The notes beneath the pieces are model-generated. The model saw only the letters and a list, made by a program, of their open reading frames with translations. It was not told the DNA's origin and did no database searches. A program made the translations under genes and the position numbers. DNA of 32,000 bases, from contig CP001817.1 in NCBI GenBank assembly GCA_000217635.1, forward strand, positions 210,001-242,000. Reading direction: 5' to 3'. Position 1 is the first letter of the stretch, and the number at the start of each line of letters is the position of its first letter. Source of the DNA: Candidatus Saccharimonadota bacterium. Its GTDB lineage: Bacteria; Pseudomonadota; Gammaproteobacteria; Enterobacterales; Enterobacteriaceae. Below are positions 809 to 24,251 of the stretch, piece after piece.

Positions 809-1444
809 ATGCATATTATTATTCGAGATTTAGGTTTGTGTAGTTGGTTATCAATTTCGAAAGCTATGAATGATTTTACAAAGATTCGTAATTATTGGAC
901 GTGTGATGAACTATGGTTAACAGAGCATTATCCTGTTTTTACTTATGGTTTATCAGAAAAAAATATAACTTATCATTATATTAACAATATTCCTATATTT
1001 TTATCAAATCGGGGAGGAAAAATAACATATCATGGTCCAGGGCAATTAGTTGTATATATATTATTAAATTTAAAACGTAATAAAATTAAATTTAGATATT
1101 TTATTAATACTATAGAAAATATAGTTATCCAAGTATTACGTTATTTTTATATTTCAGCACATATTAAAAAAATAAACCGGGAGTATATATTAATAACAAA
1201 AAAAATATGTTCTCTTGGTTTACGTATTATTAAAGGTTGTTCCTTACATGGTTTTTCATTAAATGTTAATATGAATTTAATTCCTTTTCAATATATACAT
1301 CCATGTGGAGAAAAAAACATTAAAATGACACAAATTTATCATTATAACAAAAATATTAAAATACATATAATTAAAAAAATTTTAATACAAAAGTTTTGTA
1401 AAAATTTTAAAATTTTAAAATATTGTAAATATTCAAGTCAATAA
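809..1444 (+). CDS. lipB: Octanoyltransferase LipB; the ORF is open but carries an internal compensated double frameshift
   Basis: 211-aa ORF collinear with E. coli LipB (EHYPVFT, RGGKITYHGPGQ, KKICSLGLR, HGFSLNVNMNL). The conserved PGVY block is not in the annotated frame. It is readable in another frame between A-runs 1166-1172 and 1198-1205. Confidence 0.85.
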   Translation: MHIIIRDLGLCSWLSISKAMNDFTKIRNYWTCDELWLTEHYPVFTYGLSEKNITYHYINNIPIFLSNRGGKITYHGPGQLVVYILLNLKRNKIKFRYFINTIENIVIQVLRYFYISAHIKKINREYILITKKICSLGLRIIKGCSLHGFSLNVNMNLIPFQYIHPCGEKNIKMTQIYHYNKNIKIHIIKKILIQKFCKNFKILKYCKYSSQ

Positions 1445-1510: not shown

Positions 1511-2456
1511 ATGAAAAATAATAAAATAAATAAAAAAAAATCTTTAAATATACCAACAAATGATATTACATCAAATATAAATAAAATAGAAAAAAATATA
1601 AAAATATTAAAAAAACCAGACTGGTTACGAGTTCGTTTTCCAGTCATTACAACAAATATCAATAATATAAAATCAATACTACGAAAAAATAAATTATATT
1701 CTGTTTGTGAAGAAGCGCAGTGCCCTAATTTATTTGAATGTTTTAATCGTGGAACAGCAACATTTATGATTTTAGGTTTTATTTGCACTAGAAAGTGTCC
1801 ATTTTGTGCTGTTAAAAAGGGTCGCCCAATTGTTCCAGATTATTATGAACCGCAGAAATTATATAATGTTGTTATGAAATTAAAATTGAAATATGTTGTA
1901 TTAACGTCTGTAACACGAGATGATTTACATGATGGTGGAGCTCAACATTTTTATAATTGTATACGTTTTATTCGTAATATTAAAAATATTAAAATTGAAA
2001 TATTAGTTCCAGATTTTCGTAATAAAACAAAAATTGCTTTAAATATTTTTCAATCTTGTCCTCCGGATGTATTTAATCATAACATTGAAAATGTTCCACG
2101 ACTATATCCTAGTATTCGTCCGGGATCAAATTATCACCATTCATTAAATTTTTTATATACATTTAAAAAATATTGTCCGAATATTCCTACTAAATCTGGA
2201 TTAATGTTAGGTTTAGGAGAACGTCATGACGAAGTGCTTTCCGTTTTAAAAGATTTAAAAAAAATATGGTGTTTCTATAGTTACATTAGGACAATATATG
2301 CAACCTAGCCAAAAACATTTACCTGTTAAAAAATATATTAGCCTTGAAGAATTTTCTGTTTTTAAAGATTATGCATTATCTCTAGGTTTTAGTCATGTAT
2401 TTTGTGGCCCCCTTGTTCGGTCTTCTTATCATGCCGATCAACAAAATTTATCTTAA
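1511..2456 (+). pseudogene. lipA: Lipoyl synthase LipA, frameshifted in an A8 run (may be rescued by slippage, or a homopolymer sequencing error)
   Basis: The 1511-2264 part carries CEEAQCPN and the radical-SAM CTRKCPFC motif. The next frame continues [15 protein letters not shown]...[13 protein letters not shown] to a stop at 2454-2456. Removing one A from 2257-2264 gives about 314 aa collinear with E. coli LipA. Confidence 0.88.
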
Positions 2457-2739: not shown

Positions 2740-4596
2740 GATTTGGTAATTTAAACAAAGCGCTAAATATCTATTATTTTTAATATACTCTTGAATTGAA
2801 TTAACCATATTTATAGGAAAAAATATTGTATTCCACATAATATGTGGTATGTATAATGATAAATTTTCTTTCAATGATTTGTTAATTATATTATATATTT
2901 GATGTATATAATTAATTAAAAAATTATTTGGTTTTTTTAACCATACAATCTCATATTTTTTTAATTGTGTTAATTTTGCTGCTTTTATAATAGCAGAATC
3001 AAAATCTCCTAATTGATCTACTAACCCTATATCTTTTGCAGTTTTCCCTATCCATACTCTTCCTTGAGCTATTTTATTAATTTGTTGAAAAGTTTTATTT
3101 CGCGCTTTAGCTACCAATTTAATAAATTTTTTATATCCCTTGCAAATATTAATTTTCATTACTTTTTTTTCTTCAAGCGTTAAATTATTATATGAATGAA
3201 AATTATTAATAGGGAATGTTTCTGATCCAATGTTGTAAATTCCTAAAGTTGATAATGTTTTTTCAAACGTTTGCAAAACTGAAAAAATTCCAATTGATCC
3301 AGTAACTGTTAGAGGATGCGCTATAAGAAAATTTCCTCCCAGAGCCATCCAATATCCTCCAGAAGCGGTAACATTACCCATTGAAATCACAATTGGCTTG
3401 GTACTATTACGAATGATGAATATTTTTTTTCTAAGCATTTCAGAAATATTCGCATTTCCTCCAGGGCTATTAATTCTTAAAACAATAGCACGAATTTTAG
3501 GATCATTTTTTGCATATTGCATTTGTTCGATAATAGATGATATATTCATTGCTTTAGAATTATGTATATTATTATCGATTGTTCCGTTTGCAATAATAAT
3601 AGCGATTTTTATTAGGTAATTTGGATAATTTTTATTTTTAAAAATATAATTATTAATATCGATTGAATTAAATTTTTTATTTTTTTTATTCATTCCAAAT
3701 TTTTTTATTAAATATTTATTAATATTAAAATAAGTATCAATTTTATCAATTAAGTGATGTTTAAGTGCAATATATGTGATTGAATTTTTATTTTTTTTTA
3801 ATGCATGTATAATTCTATATGATATAGGAAAAATATCTTCTTTCGTTGTTCTTCTGTTTTTTGCAATAGTTTCTAAATATTGTTGCCATATTGTATTCAT
3901 CCAACTTGTATTAATAATTTTATGAAAATTAGAAGGACCATTATGTAAAAACGGTTCAACGGCAGATTTATATTTTCCCACACGAAATACATGTATATGT
4001 ACTTTACATGTATTTAAGAAATCTTTAAAATATAATTGTTTACTAGAAAATCCGTGTAATTTAATTTTTCCGTGTGGTAGCAAAAATATTTTATTTGCAA
4101 AACTAGCTAAATAATATTGAATTTGCGTGTACTGAGATCCGATAGCATAAATACATTTCCCAGATTTTTTAAATTCATTTAATGCTTTTCCGATATAAGA
4201 TAAAATTACTGGGTTGCTAGTAAAATTACTATACATTTTTAATATTAATCCGGTAATTCTTGGATCTTTTTTTGCTTGCCTAATTTTTTTAACGATTTTA
4301 AATACTGAATTTTTGGTATCTTTATTATTTAAAAAATTTAATTGATTACAAGAATTATTTTTTAGATATTGTGTATCTATTGCTTTTTCTTCTAAATTAT
4401 TATTTAATTTAATAATTAAAGCGCTATTATATTTAGGTCGATATAATCTATTTGAATTATTTTTTTTGAATATATCCATAATCCAATGCCGATAATAAAA
4501 AAGATAAACAATACATTTAATAATATTTTCTGTAAAAATATTAAAGATCCAATAAAGATATTTAAATGGTTGTATTATTTTTAAAAAAAATTTCAT
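2731..4596 (-). CDS. sppA: Signal peptide peptidase A (protease IV), S49 family
   Basis: 621-aa ORF, similar in size to E. coli SppA (about 618 aa). It has a duplicated S49 architecture, an N-terminal membrane anchor, and GNVTASGGYWMA and QGRVWIG blocks. Confidence 0.9.
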   Translation of the reverse strand: MKFFLKIIQPFKYLYWIFNIFTENIIKCIVYLFYYRHWIMDIFKKNNSNRLYRPKYNSALIIKLNNNLEEKAIDTQYLKNNSCNQLNFLNNKDTKNSVFKIVKKIRQAKKDPRITGLILKMYSNFTSNPVILSYIGKALNEFKKSGKCIYAIGSQYTQIQYYLASFANKIFLLPHGKIKLHGFSSKQLYFKDFLNTCKVHIHVFRVGKYKSAVEPFLHNGPSNFHKIINTSWMNTIWQQYLETIAKNRRTTKEDIFPISYRIIHALKKNKNSITYIALKHHLIDKIDTYFNINKYLIKKFGMNKKNKKFNSIDINNYIFKNKNYPNYLIKIAIIIANGTIDNNIHNSKAMNISSIIEQMQYAKNDPKIRAIVLRINSPGGNANISEMLRKKIFIIRNSTKPIVISMGNVTASGGYWMALGGNFLIAHPLTVTGSIGIFSVLQTFEKTLSTLGIYNIGSETFPINNFHSYNNLTLEEKKVMKINICKGYKKFIKLVAKARNKTFQQINKIAQGRVWIGKTAKDIGLVDQLGDFDSAIIKAAKLTQLKKYEIVWLKKPNNFLINYIHQIYNIINKSLKENLSLYIPHIMWNTIFFPINMVNSIQEYIKNNRYLALCLNYQINY

Positions 4597-6533: not shown

Positions 6534-7349
6534 TTATGAAATTTGTTTGGTTGCATTTTTTAATGGAATTACAATTTTTTTTATTTCTTGTATTAATTGA
6601 ACACTATTCGAAATATTTTTTTCAATACTATTTATAATAAACGAGCCGCAGATTATCCCTCTTACACCATTTTGTAATGATTTTTTATTTGTTCTTTTGT
6701 AAAAATTCCAAATCCTTGTACAATAGGTTTTGAATGATATTTTTTAATTTTTATCGTTTTTTTTTAATGAAAATTTTATTGTAGTTTTTTGTAATCCAGT
6801 AGTACCGGATCTTGATAATAGATATATATATCCTTGACTATATTTTGATATTTTTTTAATTATTTTTGTTTCAGCATCAGGAGGGCAAATAAATACTTGA
6901 GCGATATTATATTTCTTAGAGGTACGTCGAATATCACTAGATTCTTCATAAGGCATATCTGCTATTAATATAGAATCTATTTGTATAGAAGAACATTTAG
7001 CATAAAATTTTGAGATTCCATAAGAAAAAATAATATTCATGTATACTAAAAGTCCAATTGGAATAAACGGATATTTTTTTCTAATAATATGTAACATTAA
7101 AAAACATTTTTTTACTGTCATTTTACTAAAAAAAGAACGTAAATGTGCTTTTTGTATAATAATTCCATCTGCAATAGGATCAGAAAAAGGAATGCCTAAT
7201 TCTAAAGCATCAACACCACTTTGAATAAGTACATCAATAATCTTTAAGGATACATCTATAGATGGGTCACCTAATATTATAAATGGAATAAAACACCCTT
7301 CTTTATTTAATTTTAATTTTTTTAATAAAATTTTATATCGTGATTTCAT
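6534..7349 (-). pseudogene. trpA: Tryptophan synthase alpha chain, two homopolymer frameshifts (one extra base, then one missing) with an intervening stop
   Basis: The N-terminal 201-aa ORF carries EGCFIPFIILGDP, ALELGIPFSDPIADG and YLLSRSGTTG. The middle block TIKIKKYHSKPIVQGFGIFTKEQIK is in a second frame. The C-terminal block KSLQNGVRGIICGSFIINSIEK...stop at 6534-6536 is back in the first frame. With both corrections the protein is 271 aa and collinear with E. coli TrpA. Confidence 0.88.
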
Positions 7350-8558: not shown

Positions 8559-9935
8559 TTAGTTTTTTAATATATATTGTGCTGGAAAATTTTTTATAAT
8601 ATTAAACGCGTGTCTAATTTTTTTAGAATCTTTAATTCCCGGAGAAATTTCTAATCCTGAATTTAAATCTAAGCCACAAAAACCTAAAGTCGATGCTTGA
8701 AATATATTATTTAATTTTAAACCTCCTGCTAACATCATCTTGGAAACATTATTTTTTTTTAATAATATTCCAATCAAATTTTTTCCGGTACCTCCATTTT
8801 TATGGTCTATTAAATAACAATTTATATAGTTATATCTTTCTATAGGAAAATTATTAAAAACTGGTAACGCTTTCCAGATCTTTACATTTTTTGGTAGTAA
8901 ACTGCGTAATTTTTTAATATAATCTTGATTTTCTTGTCCATGTAATTGGACTACTGCTAAAGATAATTTTATTACTCTGGATAAAATATATTTCATACAA
9001 GAATTATAAAAAACTCCAACATATTTTAATTTAACTTGACTAGTTATTTTTTTGCAATCGCGTAGTTTGATATATCGAGGAGATTTATAAAAAAATAAAC
9101 CTCCATAGATGCTACCGCTTTTTTTTACAATAAATGCGTCTTCTACTCTTGTTAATCCGCATACCTTGTTCTTTCCATATATCATGCTACATACAGTCTT
9201 TTTAAGAGAATTGGATTTCATTAAATGACTACCTATTAAAAATCCATTAACGTAACGACTTAACATACGAATTTGTTTATATTTATTAATTCCGGATTCA
9301 GAAATAACAATTCGATCTGAAGGAACTAGAGGTGCGATACGACATGTTGTCTTTAAATCTATAGATAAATTTTTTAAATTTCTATTATTAATTCCAATTA
9401 TATCTGCATTAAGTGATAATGCACGATGTAATTCTGATATGTTATGTACTTCTGTAACAATATCGATATTCATTTTTTTTGCTACATTAGACATAATAAC
9501 ATATTGAGAATTACTTAAAATAGACATCATTAATAAAATAGCATCGGCTTGATAATATCTAGCGTAATAAATTTGATATGGATCTATAAAAAAATCTTTA
9601 CATAAGAGAGGTTTATTAGTGCATTGAGATGCTTGTTTTAAATACTTAAATTTACCTTTAAAAAATTTATTTTCTGTCACAATAGATATTGCACTGGCAT
9701 ATTTTTTATAAACTTGGATGATTTTTGGAATATTAAACTTAGTTCTTAATAGTCCTATAGAAGGAGAAGCTTTTTTACATTCTAAAATAAATGCTGGGTT
9801 ATTTTTTGTATTTCTTTTTAAAAATTTTTGATTTTTTATATTGCTATAAAATGATTCTAATGGCTTTTTTAATTTATGTAGTTTTATCCATTCATTTTTA
9901 TAGTGTAATATATTATTTAATGTATTACTATTCAT
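8559..9935 (-). CDS. trpC: Bifunctional indole-3-glycerol-phosphate synthase / phosphoribosylanthranilate isomerase
   Basis: 458-aa ORF with the size and domain order of E. coli TrpC(F). It carries [15 protein letters not shown], then a PRAI half (KVCGLT..., VQLHG). Its start overlaps the trpD stop as TAATG. Confidence 0.93.
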
Positions 9936-13090: not shown

Positions 13091-13880
13091 TTAAAAAATA
13101 TATTTTTTTAAAACAAATTTTAAAGTTTTTGCGTGTCCTATTAATACATTTTTATTTTGAATATAATTACAACCTCCAAAAAGATCAGTTATTAATGCTC
13201 CTGATTCACGTGCCTGTAATTCCCCAAAAATATTATGATTATATTGATATGTCAGGTTAATATATAAATCTATTTTTCCTGCAGCTAGATATGCTAAATC
13301 TAAACCAGAACACCCAAAATTTCTAATTTGTATATTTTCTTTTAATAATATTTTAGTTATTAACATACATAAATTAATCTTTTTTACATGAATATAGTTA
13401 AAGTAGATTACAAAAATTTTTTTAGCAATATTATTGTATGTTTTACAGCGTATTCTGCGGCCATTTAACTGAGTACCTTTTCCTTTAATAGAAGTAAACA
13501 AATCGTTTTTTATTGGATCATAAATAACTGAGAAATTTATTTCTTGATTATTTATAATACAAATAGATAGACAAAAATAAGGGATCTTATGAATAAAATT
13601 TGTTTTTCCATCTAAGGTATGAATAAACCATTTTGTGTTATTATTTTTGTATATATTTTGAATATTATCAAGATTAAAAAATTGTATGATTTGGATATAC
13701 ATTATGTATAATATTATACATAACATTAAATATTTTTTTACATATAATTTTAATAGATTTATAATTACTCTCTATATCAATATTATTATCTTGATTATAA
13801 CTAATTCTATCATAATGTTGCGCGATAAGATCTCCACCTTTTCGAATAGCACGAATAGCAATATTTAATAATGGATTCAT
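13091..13880 (-). pseudogene. suhB: SuhB (inositol monophosphatase family / rrn antitermination factor), frameshifted in a T6 run, with catalytic residues substituted
   Basis: ORF 13674-13880 (MNPLLNIAIRAIRKGG...YPNHTIF) and ORF 13091-13726 (NLDNIQ...WFIHTLDGKTNF...GCSGLDLAYLAAGKID) together cover E. coli SuhB. Removing one base from 13676-13681 joins them into 262 aa. Confidence 0.85.
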
Positions 13881-15299: not shown

Positions 15300-16600
15300 A
15301 TGAAAAAAAAATATCAATCTATTCGAGGTATGCATGATTTTCTCCCTGAAGATACAATATACTTGCAAATAATAGAAAAAAAATAATAAAAATTTTAAAA
15401 AGTTATACATTTCAAGAAATTCGATTTCCTATTATAGAAAATTCTGAAATTTTTAAAAAAAGTATTGGTTATGACACTGATGTAATGTCTAAAGAAATGT
15501 ATAGCTTTTATGATCGTAATAAAAAAAAAATTTCTTTACGACCAGAAGGGACGGTTAGTTGTATTCGAGCATGTATACAGCATCATATTTTTAATAAATC
15601 ATTATTTCAAAAATTATGGTATTATGGTCCAATGTTTCGTTATGAACGTCCACAAAAAGGACGGTTTCGACAATTTTATCAATTAGGAATAGAAATATTT
15701 GGAACGTCTAATCCGATTTCAGATTTCGATATTATTTTATTAACAATTAAAATTTGGAATAGTTTAGGGATATTAAAAGATTTAACTTTAGAAATTAATT
15801 CTATTGGTTCAATTGCGGTTCGAAATAGTTATTCTATTGATTTACAAAAATTTTGTAAAAAATATTTAAATAAGTACCATTTAGATGGTATTAATGAATC
15901 AATTATAAAAAATCCAATTCGTTTATTAGATAGCAAAGATCCAAATATTAAATTAATGATGCTACATGCCCCGAAATTAAAAAATTATTTAGAAATATCT
16001 TCTATATTAAGATTTAAAAAATTACGTAGTTACTTAGATCAAAAAAATATTAGTTATATTATTAATGATAGATTAGTTCGTGGATTAGATTATTATAATG
16101 ATACAGTATTTGAATGGAAATCCCCTAAACTAGGAACGCAAAATACAATTTGTGCAGGCGGTCGTTATGATTTATTAGTTAAAAATTTAGGGGGTCCAAA
16201 TAATTCTGCTATAGGTTGCGCAATAGGTATTGACAGGTTATTTTTATTAAAAAATACATTTCAAAAAAAATTAGAAAATTATAAGGATTATACGGATATA
16301 CATATTATTTTTGTAGATAAATTATATGCTATATTTGCTTTGGATATAGCTGAAAGATTAAATTTTATTTGGCCACAATTAAAAATTTATACTAACATAA
16401 CTCAATTTAATTTATCTAATCAAATAAAATATGCAATTCAAAATCATACAAAATTTTTATTAATTTTAGATTCATATTTTTTAGGTTTAAATAAAATGAT
16501 CGTGAAAAATATTTCTAAAAAAAACAATATCAAAAATATTTTTATAGAATTTTTCAAAATCCTTGTATTTTTTATAATTTTATATAATTATTTTTATTAA
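15300..16600 (+). pseudogene. hisS: Histidine--tRNA ligase, frameshifted in an A8 run near the 5' end (essential gene; slippage rescue or sequencing error is likely)
   Basis: The ATG at 15300 (AAGG SD upstream) encodes MKKKYQSIRGMHDFLPEDTIYLQIIEKK, then stops at 15384. The next frame continues IIKILKSYTFQEIRFPIIE... into the 371-aa ORF (LRPEGT, YYGPMFRYERPQKGRFRQFYQLG, AGGRYD). One extra A gives 433 aa collinear with E. coli HisRS. Confidence 0.9.
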
Positions 16601-16659: not shown

Positions 16660-17909
16660 ATGAAGAACCTTGATAATAACTTATACAATGATAAAATTTT
16701 TAAATTGATTAAACAAGAAAATTTGCGTCAAGAAAATTCCATTAACTTAATAGCTTCAGAAAATTATGCAAATTCTATGGTTATGCAAGCACAAGGATCA
16801 TGTTTAACAAATAAATATGCTGAAGGATATATTGGAAATCGTTTTTATAGTGGTTGTCATATTATTGATAAAATTGAAAAAATTGCTATTAATCGAGCAA
16901 AAAAATTATTTCAAGTTGATTATGTAAACGTTCAACCTCATTCCGGGTCTCAAGCAAATTTTTCAATCTTTCAGGCCTTATTAAAGCCTAATGATATTAT
17001 TTTAGGAATGAATTTAATGCACGGAGGACATTTAACGCACGGATCTTCTGTAAATTTTTCAGGTAAAATGTATCGTGCATATAGTTATGGGGTTGATAAT
17101 AAAGGGCAATTAGATTATTCTAATTTAGAATATTTATCTAAAAAATATCGCCCTAAATTGATTATTGGGGGGTTTTCAGCTTATTCAGGGTTATGCGATT
17201 GGAAACGTATGCGTGATATTGCAGATTATATCGGTGCATATTTTGTTGTAGATATTTCACATATAGCCGGTTTAATCGTGACTGGGTTATATCCTAATCC
17301 ATTTGATTATGCACATGTAGTTAGTACGACTACACATAAAACTTTAGGTGGTCCACGTGGAGGTTTAATTTTATCACGACATGGCAATATCGAAATGTAT
17401 AAAAAATTAGATTCTTCCGTATTTCCTGGTAGTCAAGGAGGACCTTTAATGCATGTAATTGCTGCTAAAGCTATTGCTTTTAAAAATGCATTAAATCCAA
17501 ATTTTTTATTATTACAAGAAAAAATTTTAGAATATTCACAAATTATGGTAAAAGTTTTTATTGATAGAAATTTTTTAGTAGTATCCGGGAATACATATAA
17601 CCATTTATTTTTATTAGATTTATCAAATAAAAATATAACAGGTAAAGAAGCGAGTGAACTTTTGTCTTCTGTTAATATTATTGTCAATAAAAATACTATT
17701 CCTTATGATACTAAAAGTCCTTTTATTACATCCGGAATTCGTATAGGTACACCTTGTTTGGCATATCGAGGATTCAAAAAAATAATATTATTAGTATATC
17801 TTATTGGATATGTGATATTTTAGATGCTCCTAATAATTTAGATATGCGAAATGTTATTAAAGAAAAAGTTTTAAAAATGTGTTCTCAGTATCCTATTTAT
17901 AAAAATTAA
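16660..17909 (+). pseudogene. glyA: Serine hydroxymethyltransferase, C-terminal frameshift in an A7 run
   Basis: The 387-aa ORF has the PLP-lysine block [13 protein letters not shown]. After RGFKK the annotated frame gives a non-homologous tail. The other frame gives [19 protein letters not shown]...CSQYPIYKN with a stop at 17907-17909, matching the E. coli C-terminus [10 protein letters not shown]...ARYPVYA. Confidence 0.92.
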
Positions 17910-18646
17910 AAAACTTTTTAATTGATAAGAAAATAAGTAATAAAAAAGAATTATATAATATATAAATAATAAAAAAACTTACATAAAATATAAATTTATT
18001 AAATATTTTTTATGTATAAATAATATCTAAATTCTCAAAGAATTTTTAAAAAATATTTAATTATTCTTATACTATATTTTTTCTGTTATATAAAAATATT
18101 ATACTAATTTTTTTTTATTATTTAATAATTTTAATATTAATTTTTAATTAATTCAATAAGTAGACATATAACAATATATTTTCTAAAAAAAATAATTATA
18201 TTTTTAAAATATGTATGAAATGTTATTTATTTAAAATAATAAGATATTAATTTAATGTAATATTGTATTCCTGTCTGCATAAGACATATTATTTTTAATA
18301 ACATTAATATATATTATTTAAGTATAAAGAAGATTTTTTTATCTTATAAAAAATACATTTATTTTTAATTTTATTATATAAATTAAATTTTATTTTATAA
18401 TATCCAGTATATTTTAAATAAATACATTTATTAAAAATTTTTGTAAATATAAAAGATATAATATACTAATTTAATTTTTAAACTCTATAAATAAACTAAA
18501 AATATTTATTAAAATAGATACTATTAATATAGTATAAAATTTATTGTTATATAGTTCATTAGTTTTATTCAGATAATTAAGTTTTAAAATTTATCTGTTG
18601 TTTTTGAAATATATATCATTGTATAAAATAAATAACTACAATTAAA

Positions 18647-20707
18647 TTAAAACATTTTAATTTTATTTATAAAATTCCAAATCCATTGTAACCGTTTATA
18701 ATCACTAAAAAAAGTTCGATTAAAATATAATATATTGTTATGAAATTTCCAAATTTCTGGTCTCTTTACAATTATTTGAGAAAGATGAAAAACATCAATT
18801 TTATTTGTCTTAGAAAATATTATATATCCCGAGTTAGTTCGTGATTCTATTCTTTTTATACCTAAAAATTGAGAAATAATTTTAATTGAATGTAATAAAA
18901 ATAAATTTTTAGCGTGTATTGGTAATTCTCCAAATAGATAAAATAAATCAATTTTTATTTTGTTTAATACAACTATATTTTTTGTATGTGTTATTTTTCT
19001 ATAAAATGATAAACGTGTATTAATATTAGAAATATATTTTTCTGGTAGTAATGCTGATGTATGTAATTTAATTTTAATACTATTTTTAGGTAATAATTCT
19101 GTAATTTTTTTATTATTTTTAATACATTGTATAGCACGTGATAAAATTTTTGTATATAAATATAATCCAATACAATTAATATGTCCACTTTGAATATCAC
19201 CAAGAATGTTTCCTACCCCTCTCATTTCATAATCATATTTTGATAATTTTAATCCAGATCCTAATGTTTGCATGGTACGAATAATTTCAAGTCTTTTTTT
19301 AGCATGAGTAGTAATTGTCTTAAAATCAGAAATAAAAAACCATGCATATGCTTGCTCTGCTGCGCGACCTACACGACCTCTTAATTGATGTAATTGTGAT
19401 AAACCAAATTTATCAGAATTTTCAATAATAATTGTATTAACATTACTTATATCTAAACCGGTATCTATTATTGTAGTACATACTAAAACATTAAAACGTT
19501 TTATTAAAAAATTATGCATAATAATGTTTAAAATATTTCCAGACATTTTTCCATGACTGATACAAAATTTTGCTTCCGGTATTAAAGTGGATAAAATTTT
19601 CGTTTTTTCTTCTATTTTTTTGACTGAATTAAATAAATAATATACTTGTCCATTTCTTTTTAACTCTTTTAAAATAATATTTCTTATTATCTTTAAATCA
19701 TATTTTTCAACAAATGTTTTAACCGGTACACGTTTTTGAATAGGTTGAGATATAATAGATAAATCTCGTAAACCAAGTAAAGAAAAATGTAGGGTACGAG
19801 GAATTGGAGTAGCAGTAAGAGTTAAGATATCTATAAATAGATAACGTTTTTTAATATTTTCTTTATGATAAACTCCAAAACGATGTTCTTCATCAACAAT
19901 TAATAATCCTAAGTTTTTCCATTGTATATGAGTAGATAAAATTTTATGGGTACCAATTAATAAATTAATTTCTCCATTTTTTAATTTTTTTTTATTTCTT
20001 TCTCTTTTTTTTTTAGTTAAACGAGTTATAAGTTTTATGATATAAGGATATTTTTTAAATCTTTGTTGGATATTATAATAATGCTGTTGCGCTAATAATG
20101 TAGTAGGTACTAAAAGAGCAACTTGTTTTATATTATCTAAGGCAATAAATATTGCTCTCATAGCTACTTCTGTTTTTCCGAAACCAACGTCACCACAAAT
20201 TAATCGATCCATTGGATGATTTTTATTCATATCATGTAAAACTTGTTTTATGGATTGATTTTGATCTGCAGTTAAATTAAACGGAAAAGATTTACAAAAT
20301 TTTTTATATCTAAGTGGATTAATAATAAAAGAAAAACCAACGGTAAGTAAACGTCGTGAATATAAATCTAATAGATATACTGCGGTATCACAAATTTTTT
20401 TTTCTATTTTTTTTGTATTTTTTTTCCATCGACTATCACTTAATGTATTTAATTGAACGTTTGAGTGTATTGTATTTTGATATGGAGTAACTAAAGATAA
20501 AGAGGTAATAGGAACATAAAGTTTTTCATTTTTTGCATATGTAATAATAATATATTCATTAATTATGTTTTTTATATTAAATACACATAAACCTGTATAT
20601 CGACCTATACCATATTTTATATGTACAACTAATTGATTTTTAGTAAAAAAATCATTTTTTTTATTGTAATAAGTATGCAAAACGTTATTATTTGTTATTG
20701 AATTCAT
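18647..20707 (-). CDS. mfd: Transcription-repair coupling factor Mfd lacking the N-terminal UvrB-homology module
   Basis: 686-aa ORF beginning just before the RNAP-interaction domain (HIKYGIGRYTGL...KLYVP). It has the helicase motifs GDVGFGKTEVA, VDEEHRFG, TATPIPRTL and QLHQLRGRVGR, and the C-terminal domain is retained. E. coli Mfd is 1148 aa. Confidence 0.9.
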   Translation of the reverse strand: MNSITNNNVLHTYYNKKNDFFTKNQLVVHIKYGIGRYTGLCVFNIKNIINEYIIITYAKNEKLYVPITSLSLVTPYQNTIHSNVQLNTLSDSRWKKNTKKIEKKICDTAVYLLDLYSRRLLTVGFSFIINPLRYKKFCKSFPFNLTADQNQSIKQVLHDMNKNHPMDRLICGDVGFGKTEVAMRAIFIALDNIKQVALLVPTTLLAQQHYYNIQQRFKKYPYIIKLITRLTKKKRERNKKKLKNGEINLLIGTHKILSTHIQWKNLGLLIVDEEHRFGVYHKENIKKRYLFIDILTLTATPIPRTLHFSLLGLRDLSIISQPIQKRVPVKTFVEKYDLKIIRNIILKELKRNGQVYYLFNSVKKIEEKTKILSTLIPEAKFCISHGKMSGNILNIIMHNFLIKRFNVLVCTTIIDTGLDISNVNTIIIENSDKFGLSQLHQLRGRVGRAAEQAYAWFFISDFKTITTHAKKRLEIIRTMQTLGSGLKLSKYDYEMRGVGNILGDIQSGHINCIGLYLYTKILSRAIQCIKNNKKITELLPKNSIKIKLHTSALLPEKYISNINTRLSFYRKITHTKNIVVLNKIKIDLFYLFGELPIHAKNLFLLHSIKIISQFLGIKRIESRTNSGYIIFSKTNKIDVFHLSQIIVKRPEIWKFHNNILYFNRTFFSDYKRLQWIWNFINKIKMF

Positions 20708-21286
20708 ATTAAATATATCTTTTTATAAAATTTTATAAACAACAATTTATATTATTATTTTTTTATTTATATAATTTTTAAAATTTTAATAGCTGTATAA
20801 ATAGTATAGAAATTTATTTTTCTAAAAAAAATTATATAGAAAATGTGATAAAATCTTTTATTTTGTATAAAAAATATTTTTTAATTAAAAATATAGAATT
20901 TAAATGAATATTTATTAAATGATATTTAATAAATTTATTACATACTTTTTCAATAAAGTATTTATATACTGATATAATAATATATTTAAAAATTATAAAA
21001 ATTGATATTTTTTTAGAAAAATATATTATATAGAAAATATAAATTTATTATATATATTTTTTTAAAAATAATTTTATGATAAATATTTTTTATATATATT
21101 ATAATATATTATATCATAATATATTTTTTTATATTTAAAAAATAATAAATTTCTTATAAAATATGTAATTGTATTACTATAACATCATAAAAATTAGTTT
21201 AATATAATTTTTTAAAATATTTTTAAAAGAATTATATTATTAATATTTTTATTAAATTTTAAATATTTTAAATTTTAGGTAATAAT

Positions 21287-22413: not shown

Positions 22414-22988
22414 TTAATAAGTAGTATTTAGTTTTTTTAAAAAAATATATGAAAATAGACTATATCGTATAATATTTTTTAAATTAATTTCTGATAAAAT
22501 TAATTTTACCCATTGTGCGACTCGTGTATTAGTTAAATTAGACTGTCTATCTTCATCAATCGGAAGTCCAAAAAAGTGTGTTTTATTCGCTTGAGCTTTT
22601 GAAGATTCAAAATGATATTCATGAATCGGCCATTTTCCAATAAAATTAGCGTGTTTTTTTTTAAAAAAATTATACATAATACCAAGAGCATCACAAAAAT
22701 ATTCAGAGTAATCTTCTTGATCACCACAACCAAATAAACCAATAATTTTTTTATTAAAATTTATATTTTTTAACATAGGTAATGATTCAGACCAATCACA
22801 TTGTAGTTCACCATAGTACCACGTTGGTATTCCTAATAATAAAATTTTAAAATCTTCCATTTTTTTAATTGGGCTATGAGAAATATCAAAAAGACTTGAT
22901 TTTTCTTTTCCAATAATTTTATGTATTAATCTAGAAATTTTTTCGGTGTTTCCTGTATCGCTGCCATAAAAAATTCCAATTTTTTCAT
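22414..22988 (-). pseudogene. fldA: Flavodoxin FldA, frameshifted in the A6 run immediately after the start codon
   Basis: The ORF 22414-22860 starts at [23 protein letters not shown], which is mid-protein. Upstream, [40 protein letters not shown] (the FMN phosphate loop) is in that same frame. The ATG at 22986-22988 is out of frame by one base. One added A gives 191 aa collinear with E. coli FldA. Confidence 0.88.
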
Positions 22989-23502
22989 ATTTTTATCTCT
23001 ATTAATATTTTTAAATTTTTAATAATTATATTTTTTGAACCTTTGATATTATTTTCTATATAAAAAATTTATTTAAAAATTTTAGTGTTTGTGTTTTTGC
23101 TTTCTTTTTTGTCGTTAATAATTTATATTATTTGTTTTATTTATAATAAAAATTTTGTATAGATATATAATTTTTAATTATATTTTTCTAAAAAGATATA
23201 ATTCTTTTGTTTATGTAAAAATATTAATATAATTAAATAATTTAATTAACATTACTTATATAACTATAATATATAAATTATTAATTTTAATTTATTAAAA
23301 TATAATAAAAATATTTTTAATAATTATTTATATTTTTTATAAAAAAATATGCTATTTTGGTGTATATTTAACTGATATATCATAATATTCATATCTTTTA
23401 ATTTAATTATTTACAATGATATTTTTTTAAAATTCATTTTATTTTAATAAAAATAACATATTTTTATATTTTTTAAAATAAATTTTATTACGGTTATTAA
23501 AT

Positions 23503-24251
23503 ATGAATAATTTACTTCTTGAAAAAATTATTAATAAAAAATTAAAAAATAAACATACTTTACATGATTATATTCCAAATGGATTACAAGTAGAGGGATG
23601 TTCGGAAATTTACAATATTGTAACTGGAGTCACAGCATGTCGAAAATTATTAAAGAAATCATTAGACTATCAAGCTCACGCAATAATTGTACATCATGGA
23701 TATTTTTGGAAAAATGAAAATCCAAAAATTATTGGTATGAAACGCAATCGATTAAAAATTCTTTTAACCAATGATATTAATCTTTACAGTTGGCATTTAC
23801 CTTTAGATATACATCCTGAACTCGGAAATAATGTTCTATTAGGAAATGCTTTGAATATTTCTATACAAGGTTATATTACTCCGCTAGTATTATGGGGGTA
23901 TTTTAAAAAAAAAATTATTAGTTAGTGAATTAAAAAAAAATAAAAAACGATTTTTCATAGAAAACCATTTCATTATGGAAATAAAACGAAAATATATTAC
24001 GCGAGTTGCATGGTGTACTGGTCGTGGGCAAAATTTTATAACAGAAGCTTTAAATTTTAATATAGATGCTTATATAACAGGCGAAGTTTCTGAAGAAACT
24101 ATTCATATTGCTGAAGAAAATAACATTCATTTTTTTTTCTTTAGGTCATCATGCTACTGAAAGATCAGGAATATATCAGTTAGGTCAGTGGTTATCTCAA
24201 CAAAATTATAATTTAAATATTAAATTTATTGATATTGATAATCCTATTTAA
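23503..24251 (+). pseudogene. ybgI: Nif3-family dinuclear-metal protein YbgI (GTP cyclohydrolase 1 type 2 homolog), two homopolymer frameshifts
   Basis: There are three collinear pieces: 23503-23925 (PNGLQVEG, VHHGYFW, WHLPLDIHPELGNN), 23975-24160 (RVAWCTGRGQNF, AYITGEVSE), and a tail GHHATERSGI...IDIDNPI with a stop at 24249-24251. The breaks are in the A10 run 23905-23914 and the T9 run 24130-24138. The corrected length is 248 aa (E. coli 247). Confidence 0.86.

Follow-up and report, generated by a model that had tools for sequence, protein, structure and literature searches.

The window analysed here is a stretch of 32,000 nucleotides of the deposited sequence CP001817.1, from the Buchnera aphidicola BCt symbiont of Cinara tujafilina, and it has a G+C content of 22%. 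Close to its left end lies lipB (809-1444, forward strand), the predicted octanoyltransferase gene, whose ORF is open as deposited, encodes 211 amino acids and matches LipB profiles over its full length; it stands in the order marC/ychE-lipB-lipA, as in related Buchnera. The gene contains two adenine runs on the forward strand, an A7 run at 1166-1172 and an A8 run at 1198-1205, and between them is a 25-nucleotide segment (1173-1197) that is read out of frame. In the genomic frame this segment encodes INREYILI(T), and in the frame that we regard as ancestral it encodes (N)KPGVYINN. Across both runs the open frame of lipB reads AHIKKINREYILITKKICSLG, and the frame one base earlier reads KNKPGVYINNKK between them.

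A frameshift-aware alignment places a missing base at 1172 and an extra base at 1198. The first run is one base shorter than the inferred true or ancestral A8 and the second is one base longer than an inferred A7, with the frame restored before the KKICSLG motif; an extra A in the first run and one fewer in the second convert the protein to AHIKKNKPGVYINNKKICSLG without changing the length of the ORF. The opposite indels are 32 nucleotides apart, and the ORF remains open between them. A preliminary description of this locus gave the positions and lengths of the two runs exactly, and both of the readings that it reported, INREYILIT in the open frame and NKPGVYINN one base earlier, are present. 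Its central observation also stands, namely that two opposite single-base indels in A-runs replace nine residues, the PGVY block among them, beside the lysine of KKICSLG, and an ORF caller would indeed report a gene in this state as intact.

Ancestral reading frame of lipB

The deposited protein belongs to the LipB family (NF010922, TIGR00214; Pfam PF21948), with a full-length profile match, but it fits the family better once the runs have been edited to A8 and A7. Against NF010922, the NCBIfam model of enterobacterial LipB, the deposited protein scores 218.8 bits and the edited protein 242.6 bits, a gain of 23.8 bits that carries it from below to above the curated cut-off of 235. Against TIGR00214 the deposited protein scores 154.8 bits, which is above the cut-off of 83.55, and the same edit adds 19.3 bits. 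In an alignment of orthologues, the pattern xxPGV[YF] followed by xxxxK is in frame at the lipB site in 20 of 20 sequences, and G125 and Y127 are nearly invariant. In the deposited LipB this PGV[YF] strand before the lysine is out of frame, being found in the -1 frame only, and it is in frame after correction of the runs. The residues K132 (of KKICSLG) and C166 (of PCG) of the window protein are retained and occupy invariant alignment columns; in E. coli LipB the catalytic residues are the lysine K135 (of KKICSLG) and the cysteine C169 (of PCG).

The nucleotide sequences of relatives can be read in the same way. The lipB genes of four related Lachninae Buchnera have GGA GTA TAT ATT AAT AA in frame, matching the window, and the lipB sequence GGAGTATATATTAATAA is identical in three other Lachninae Buchnera. 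Compared with the related loci, the window gene is one base short before the GGA GTA TAT stretch and one base long after it, and the shifted segment differs from those of relatives at only four nucleotides, two of which are at third codon positions of the ancestral frame. When the segment is compared with the Buchnera of Cinara confinis, seven of nine residues are identical in the ancestral frame and none of nine in the genomic frame.

We find that the match of the alternative frame to PGVY is far beyond chance, and that this frame is, to judge from the sequence comparisons, the ancestral one. The preliminary description had proposed ancestral runs of A8 and then A7, which agrees with the NF010922 gain and with the PGV[YF] pattern shared by all 20 orthologues. 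It had also argued that the PGVY match was very unlikely to be fortuitous, and here the profile gain, the orthologue alignment, the DNA of relatives and the frameshift-aware alignment concur; the comparison with orthologues that it suggested as a check places PGVY in frame in the lipB genes of relatives.

Single-base indels across the window

To place the lipB pair in context we surveyed the whole window, using as reference the Buchnera of C. confinis (LT667503.1, 41 kb), which is the closest complete relative and is fully syntenic with the window. Twenty-five C. confinis Buchnera proteins were compared with the window DNA by a frameshift-aware dynamic programme, and the calls were then checked by eye. 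This yields 22 single-base indels in 10 of the 25 genes, all at A/T runs of 4-10 nucleotides and all within 809-24138: two in lipB, one in lipA, four in sppA, two in trpA, two in trpC, three in suhB, two in hisS, one in glyA, one in fldA and four in ybgI. None of the 22 is present in C. confinis, where all of the affected genes are intact.

Next to lipB, lipA (1511-2456, forward strand) has an extra base in the A8 run at 2257-2264 and is split into ORFs of 265 and 52 amino acids; with one A removed it encodes a protein of 314 amino acids that matches lipoyl synthase profiles end to end. The sppA gene, on the reverse strand, has an ORF that looks intact (621 amino acids) despite two hidden pairs, at both of which the alternative frame matches the C. 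confinis orthologue. The first pair (4460-4538) consists of a +1 change in the A5 run at 4534-4538 and a -1 change in the T8 run at 4460-4467, and it puts 23 residues of the N-terminal hydrophobic segment out of frame; residues 21-43 read FTENIIKCIVYLFYYRHWIMDIF in the genomic frame, LQKILLNVLFIFFIIGIGLWIYS in the alternative frame and LRKILLNILFLFLIMGIGLWIYS in C. confinis, the ancestral frame agreeing with C. confinis at 18 of 23 positions and the genomic frame at none of 23. The second (3606-3633) combines a -1 change in the T5 run at 3629-3633 with a +1 change in the T5 run at 3606-3610, and leaves seven residues (323-329) out of frame. The reverse-strand trpC(F) gene likewise stays open across a compensated pair (8752-8784; -1 in the T6 run at 8779-8784, +1 in the T9 run at 8752-8760), which scrambles the conserved GGTGxxFDW block of the PRAI domain at residues 386-392. 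In trpA, also on the reverse strand, the pair at 6681-6765 (+1 in the T9 run at 6757-6765, -1 in the T6 run at 6681-6686) has a stop codon between its two members, and trpA therefore appears truncated; a third candidate indel near the trpA C-terminus (6545) was rejected as an alignment end effect.

The remaining genes show uncompensated or multiple changes. In suhB (affected stretch 13093-13681, reverse strand) there is a +1 change at the run at 13676-13681 and there are two more indels in runs at 13093-13109, near the C-terminus. The hisS gene (affected stretch 15376-16524, forward strand) has a -1 change in the A8 run at 15376-15383, which cuts the start codon from the body of the gene, and a second -1 change in the A8 run at 16517-16524. 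A -1 change at the A7 run at 17776-17782 of glyA (forward strand) puts the C-terminal 40 residues in another frame, and a -1 change in the A-run immediately after the ATG of fldA (22980-22985, reverse strand; A6 in place of the required A7) puts the start codon out of frame with the FMN-binding N-terminus. Four indels lie at or near runs in ybgI (affected stretch 23905-24138, forward strand; A10 at 23905-23914, A9 at 23932-23940, A4 at 23983-23986 and T9 at 24130-24138), and one compensated pair is found here inside a gene that is already broken.

Profile scans of all window ORFs give a consistent picture, with trpA, suhB, hisS, glyA, fldA and ybgI truncated and their missing parts in other frames, and in each truncated gene the shift of frame coincides with an A/T run. 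After one or two ±1 homopolymer edits lipA, trpA, suhB, hisS, glyA, fldA and ybgI fit their NCBIfam profiles over essentially the whole length, although in suhB, hisS and ybgI further short out-of-frame stretches remain that need additional ±1 edits. The affected genes have no lesion other than ±1 changes at homopolymers.

Several features of the window deserve mention in their own right. The corrected C-terminus of FldA (22414-22470, reverse strand) is about 15 residues longer than that of the C. confinis protein (...NKRNTK), which may be due to one more indel close to the stop codon or to a genuine difference in the tail. The product of mfd (18647-20707, reverse strand) covers profile positions 478-1142 of 1148 and so corresponds to no more than the C-terminal 686 residues of the E. 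coli-type protein; since the C. confinis mfd is of the same length (688 amino acids), this is a feature of the lineage and not an error. No ORF, profile match or tRNA was found in the non-coding gaps at 17910-18646, 20708-21286 and 22990-23502 (500-740 nucleotides), and gaps of similar size are present at the same places in C. confinis. The C. confinis sequence itself has only two split genes in 41 kb, era at an A12 run and lepB at an A11 run (LT667503.1, locus L086, 287-1152 and 1936-2849), which look like classical long-poly(A) frameshifts and are candidates for rescue by slippage.

The likelihood that a coding run carries an indel rises steeply with its length, from 0.3% for 4-mers to 4.5% for 6-mers, 16% for 8-mers and 27% for 9-mers. 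The signs are roughly balanced, with about twelve losses and ten gains by manual reading when the C-terminal change in suhB is counted as two losses. Their distribution along the window is uneven: no indel was found in the 24.3-32 kb region, where 8.1 would be expected from the per-length rates (P about 3e-4), and this region includes sucA, sucB, gpmA, pfkA, tpiA and ihfB and contains many long A-runs, one of them A11. Sequence quality thus seems to vary along the assembly, and such patchiness suits an assembly of uneven quality and not selection. Run on two more Lachninae Buchnera assemblies that are at least as divergent, the same programme found no internal frameshift in nine gene comparisons.

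Five segments lying between compensating runs were compared with C. confinis in both frames, and 53 of 70 residues (76%) match in the ancestral frame, as against 4 of 70 (6%) in the genomic frame; over whole genes, identity to C. confinis is 69-73%. Because identity in the ancestral frame is about that of the genes as a whole, the ancestral frame must have been under selection for essentially the whole of the divergence, and there is no sign of relaxed constraint on the old frame either in these segments together or in lipB. The indels are also more closely paired than independent placement would give, with 8 pairs no more than 80 nucleotides apart against 1.3-1.7 expected (P<5e-5), and seven of the eight are opposite in sign.

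Origin of the indels

The genome of BCt, as described by Lamelas and colleagues in 2011, was reportedly assembled mainly from 454 pyrosequencing reads. Reads of this type get the length of long A/T runs wrong in both directions. Libraries of C. tujafilina bacteriocyte DNA from the same laboratory were sequenced by 454 FLX and Titanium, and the co-symbiont genome needed Illumina polishing (PMC4122931); at the poly-A regions of Buchnera, 454 data have been described as unreliable (PMC3890641). Chromosomal trpABCD genes (PMC4898801) and a ychE gene (PMC3246468) likewise agree with BCt. In Table 1 of a published comparison (PMC11193766), CP001817.1 is given as 444,925 bp with 23.0% G+C, and among the Cinara Buchnera rows compared here it ranks first both in number of CDS (394, where other Cinara Buchnera have 370-385) and in amount of non-coding DNA (78,487 bp), as would be expected if its genes are fragmented. 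We infer that 454 sequencing is the platform behind the indels of CP001817.1.

The density of indels in the window, with 10 of 25 genes affected, far exceeds what biology is known to produce: in Blochmannia genomes sequenced with care, homopolymer frameshifts affect only 4-8 genes per genome (PMC3017870). Moreover, an obligate symbiont cannot do without hisS, with its two indels, glyA or fldA, and the uncompensated indels in hisS, glyA, fldA, lipA, suhB and ybgI cannot all be real, so that a process of error must be at work whichever reading of lipB is right. The indels are, in our interpretation, errors and not mutations. As one of about 22 A/T-run single-base errors in the window, the lipB pair is very probably (at roughly 88%) an artefact of the deposited assembly, the real runs most likely being A8 and then A7 and LipB being a normal protein with AHIKKNKPGVYINNKKICSLG. 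The mechanism that we propose is that the consensus of the deposited assembly would contain about one A/T-run miscount per kb over 809-24138; where two opposite miscounts fall close together and the intermediate frame has no stop codon, the ORF would stay open while a short stretch of protein is scrambled, an outcome that we would recognize in lipB, in sppA (twice), in trpC and inside the already broken ybgI.

This changes the meaning of the observation with which the analysis began. The preliminary description implied a biological lesion specific to lipB, and that part of it is not supported by the survey: about 20 further indels of the same kind are present in the window and break essential genes, other compensated pairs occur in sppA, trpC and ybgI, and within the shifted segments the ancestral frame has not decayed. 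The two other Lachninae Buchnera assemblies lack internal frameshifts in the nine gene comparisons, and C. confinis is intact across the region. A metagenome scan with a species-specific 25-mer from between the lipB runs found no independent sequence of the C. tujafilina Buchnera, the protein clusters being of size 1, and the window has no tRNA gene that could serve as an independent indel test.

The excess of close opposite-sign pairs calls for comment. It could reflect errors that are correlated or, more speculatively, finishing in which a frameshift was 'repaired' at a neighbouring run instead of the right one. Patches of low quality would account for the clustering of indels but not for the bias in sign; mis-targeted manual or automated repair of the frame would account for both, although this is speculation. 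Incomplete extension or carry-forward in pyrosequencing was considered as a direct cause of the opposite pairs and rejected, other A-runs lying between the two of lipB. Selection for real restoration of the frame would also produce close pairs of opposite sign, for which reason we still allow real compensated pairs a small probability. That BCt has many very recent pairs of this kind, in lipB, twice in sppA, in trpC and in ybgI within 24 kb, is highly improbable; if they were real, a high rate of homopolymer slippage together with rapid frame-restoring selection would be recoding short protein segments genome-wide.

For lipB alone, a real and very recent compensatory pair, with the -1 and +1 changes arising in either order and being fixed as the frame was restored, would leave nine foreign residues in an enzyme that is impaired or dead. 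The open ORF, the distance of only 32 nucleotides and the over-representation of close opposite-sign pairs are what frame-restoring selection would predict, and A-runs of Buchnera are frequent sites of replication slippage (PMC5574713; PMC3017870); real poly(A) frameshifts do occur in this symbiont (PMC3017870; bioRxiv 10.1101/2022.08.28.505559). Yet the foreign residues would include the positions of the nearly invariant G125 and Y127, and uncompensated indels lie in the same window in hisS (two), glyA, fldA, lipA, suhB and ybgI. With seven of nine residues still identical in the ancestral frame and only four nucleotide differences, the event would have to be extremely recent, and the same extreme recency would be needed for all five pairs at once; we consider a real lipB pair very unlikely. 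It is more doubtful still that the indels are real and mark an ongoing loss of the lipoate pathway (lipB and lipA) in this Buchnera, under selection relaxed by a supply of lipoylation from the co-obligate Serratia symbiotica or the host. The +1 change in the adjoining lipA and the large gene set of the co-obligate Serratia of C. tujafilina (PMC4122931) would fit with such a loss; against it, lipB and lipA are no more densely hit by indels than sppA, ybgI, hisS or suhB, so that there is nothing specific to the pathway, and sucA and sucB, which encode a lipoate-dependent complex, are intact in the window. Both lipB and lipA have ±1 homopolymer lesions only and match their profiles end to end once these are corrected, and both genes are intact in all of the related Lachninae Buchnera examined.

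It is also conceivable, but barely so, that the indels are real and are corrected in RNA, with transcriptional slippage at the A-runs yielding some mRNAs for the ancestral LipB. Single indels in long poly(A) tracts have been shown to be rescued in this way, and genes of that kind are annotated as functional (PMC3017870; bioRxiv 10.1101/2022.08.28.505559), but lipB would need an insertion at A7 and a deletion at A8 in one and the same transcript. Slippage depends exponentially on run length and is mostly insertional, and a transcriptome-wide study observed no restored frame in Buchnera (PMC5574713). Several of the window indels are at runs of only 4-6 nucleotides, and the frameshifts are not conserved in relatives, those of C. 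confinis being at A11-A12 tracts.

If the pair is an assembly error, as we favour, lipB is most likely intact, the lipoate pathway of the C. tujafilina Buchnera is normal and the scrambled block has no biological import. The consequences would lie in how the sequence is used. CP001817.1 is still included in comparative datasets, such as a set of 90 genomes (PMC11193766), and up to one homopolymer indel per kb would give rise to spurious calls of pseudogenes or gene loss for hisS, glyA, fldA, trpA, lipA, suhB and ybgI. The deposited proteins also include products of 'intact' ORFs with scrambled motifs, namely the PGVY block of LipB, the FDW block of TrpC and the N-terminal hydrophobic segment of SppA. 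Hidden pairs of this kind are invisible to quality checks based on ORFs and would bias rate estimates, dN/dS and structure predictions.

Comparison with known systems

Compared with E. coli LipB (structures 1w66 and 2qht), the window protein is similar in its full-length profile match, the KKICSLG lysine and the PCG cysteine; as deposited it differs in lacking the PGVY strand before the lysine, and after the A8/A7 edit it is a typical LipB.

The poly(A)-tract frameshifts of Buchnera and Blochmannia that are rescued by transcriptional slippage, said to have been described by Tamas and colleagues in 2008 and by Wernegreen and colleagues in 2010, resemble the window indels in that they are single-base changes in A-runs of otherwise intact genes in an AT-rich endosymbiont. 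The known cases that we examined are, however, single indels in long tracts (11 adenines in visC of B. vafer, A11-A12 in era and lepB of C. confinis), number 4-8 per genome and are often conserved between relatives, whereas those of the window are at runs of 4-10 nucleotides, occur at about one per kb and are in no case shared. The lipB gene departs from this type on both counts, with two indels at A7 and A8 where a single one in a poly(A) tract of about 9 or more would be typical, and with the orthologues of the four related Lachninae Buchnera in frame.

Evolutionary compensatory pairs share with lipB the two nearby opposite ±1 indels, which in lipB are 32 nucleotides apart, the open ORF and the short recoded stretch. 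In such pairs the recoded stretch evolves in the new frame, but in the lipB segment the ancestral frame is conserved to the same degree as elsewhere in the gene, and neighbouring genes of the window have indels of this type that are uncompensated and look lethal.

The explanation that we favour likens the indels to 454 homopolymer miscalls in AT-rich assemblies. As with these, the window indels are confined to homopolymers, rise steeply in rate with run length and include both over-calls and under-calls; they are patchy along the sequence and strike essential genes as indiscriminately as others, with ±1 edits restoring each. They depart from such miscalls in the excess of close pairs of opposite sign, which is not textbook behaviour for independent 454 errors.
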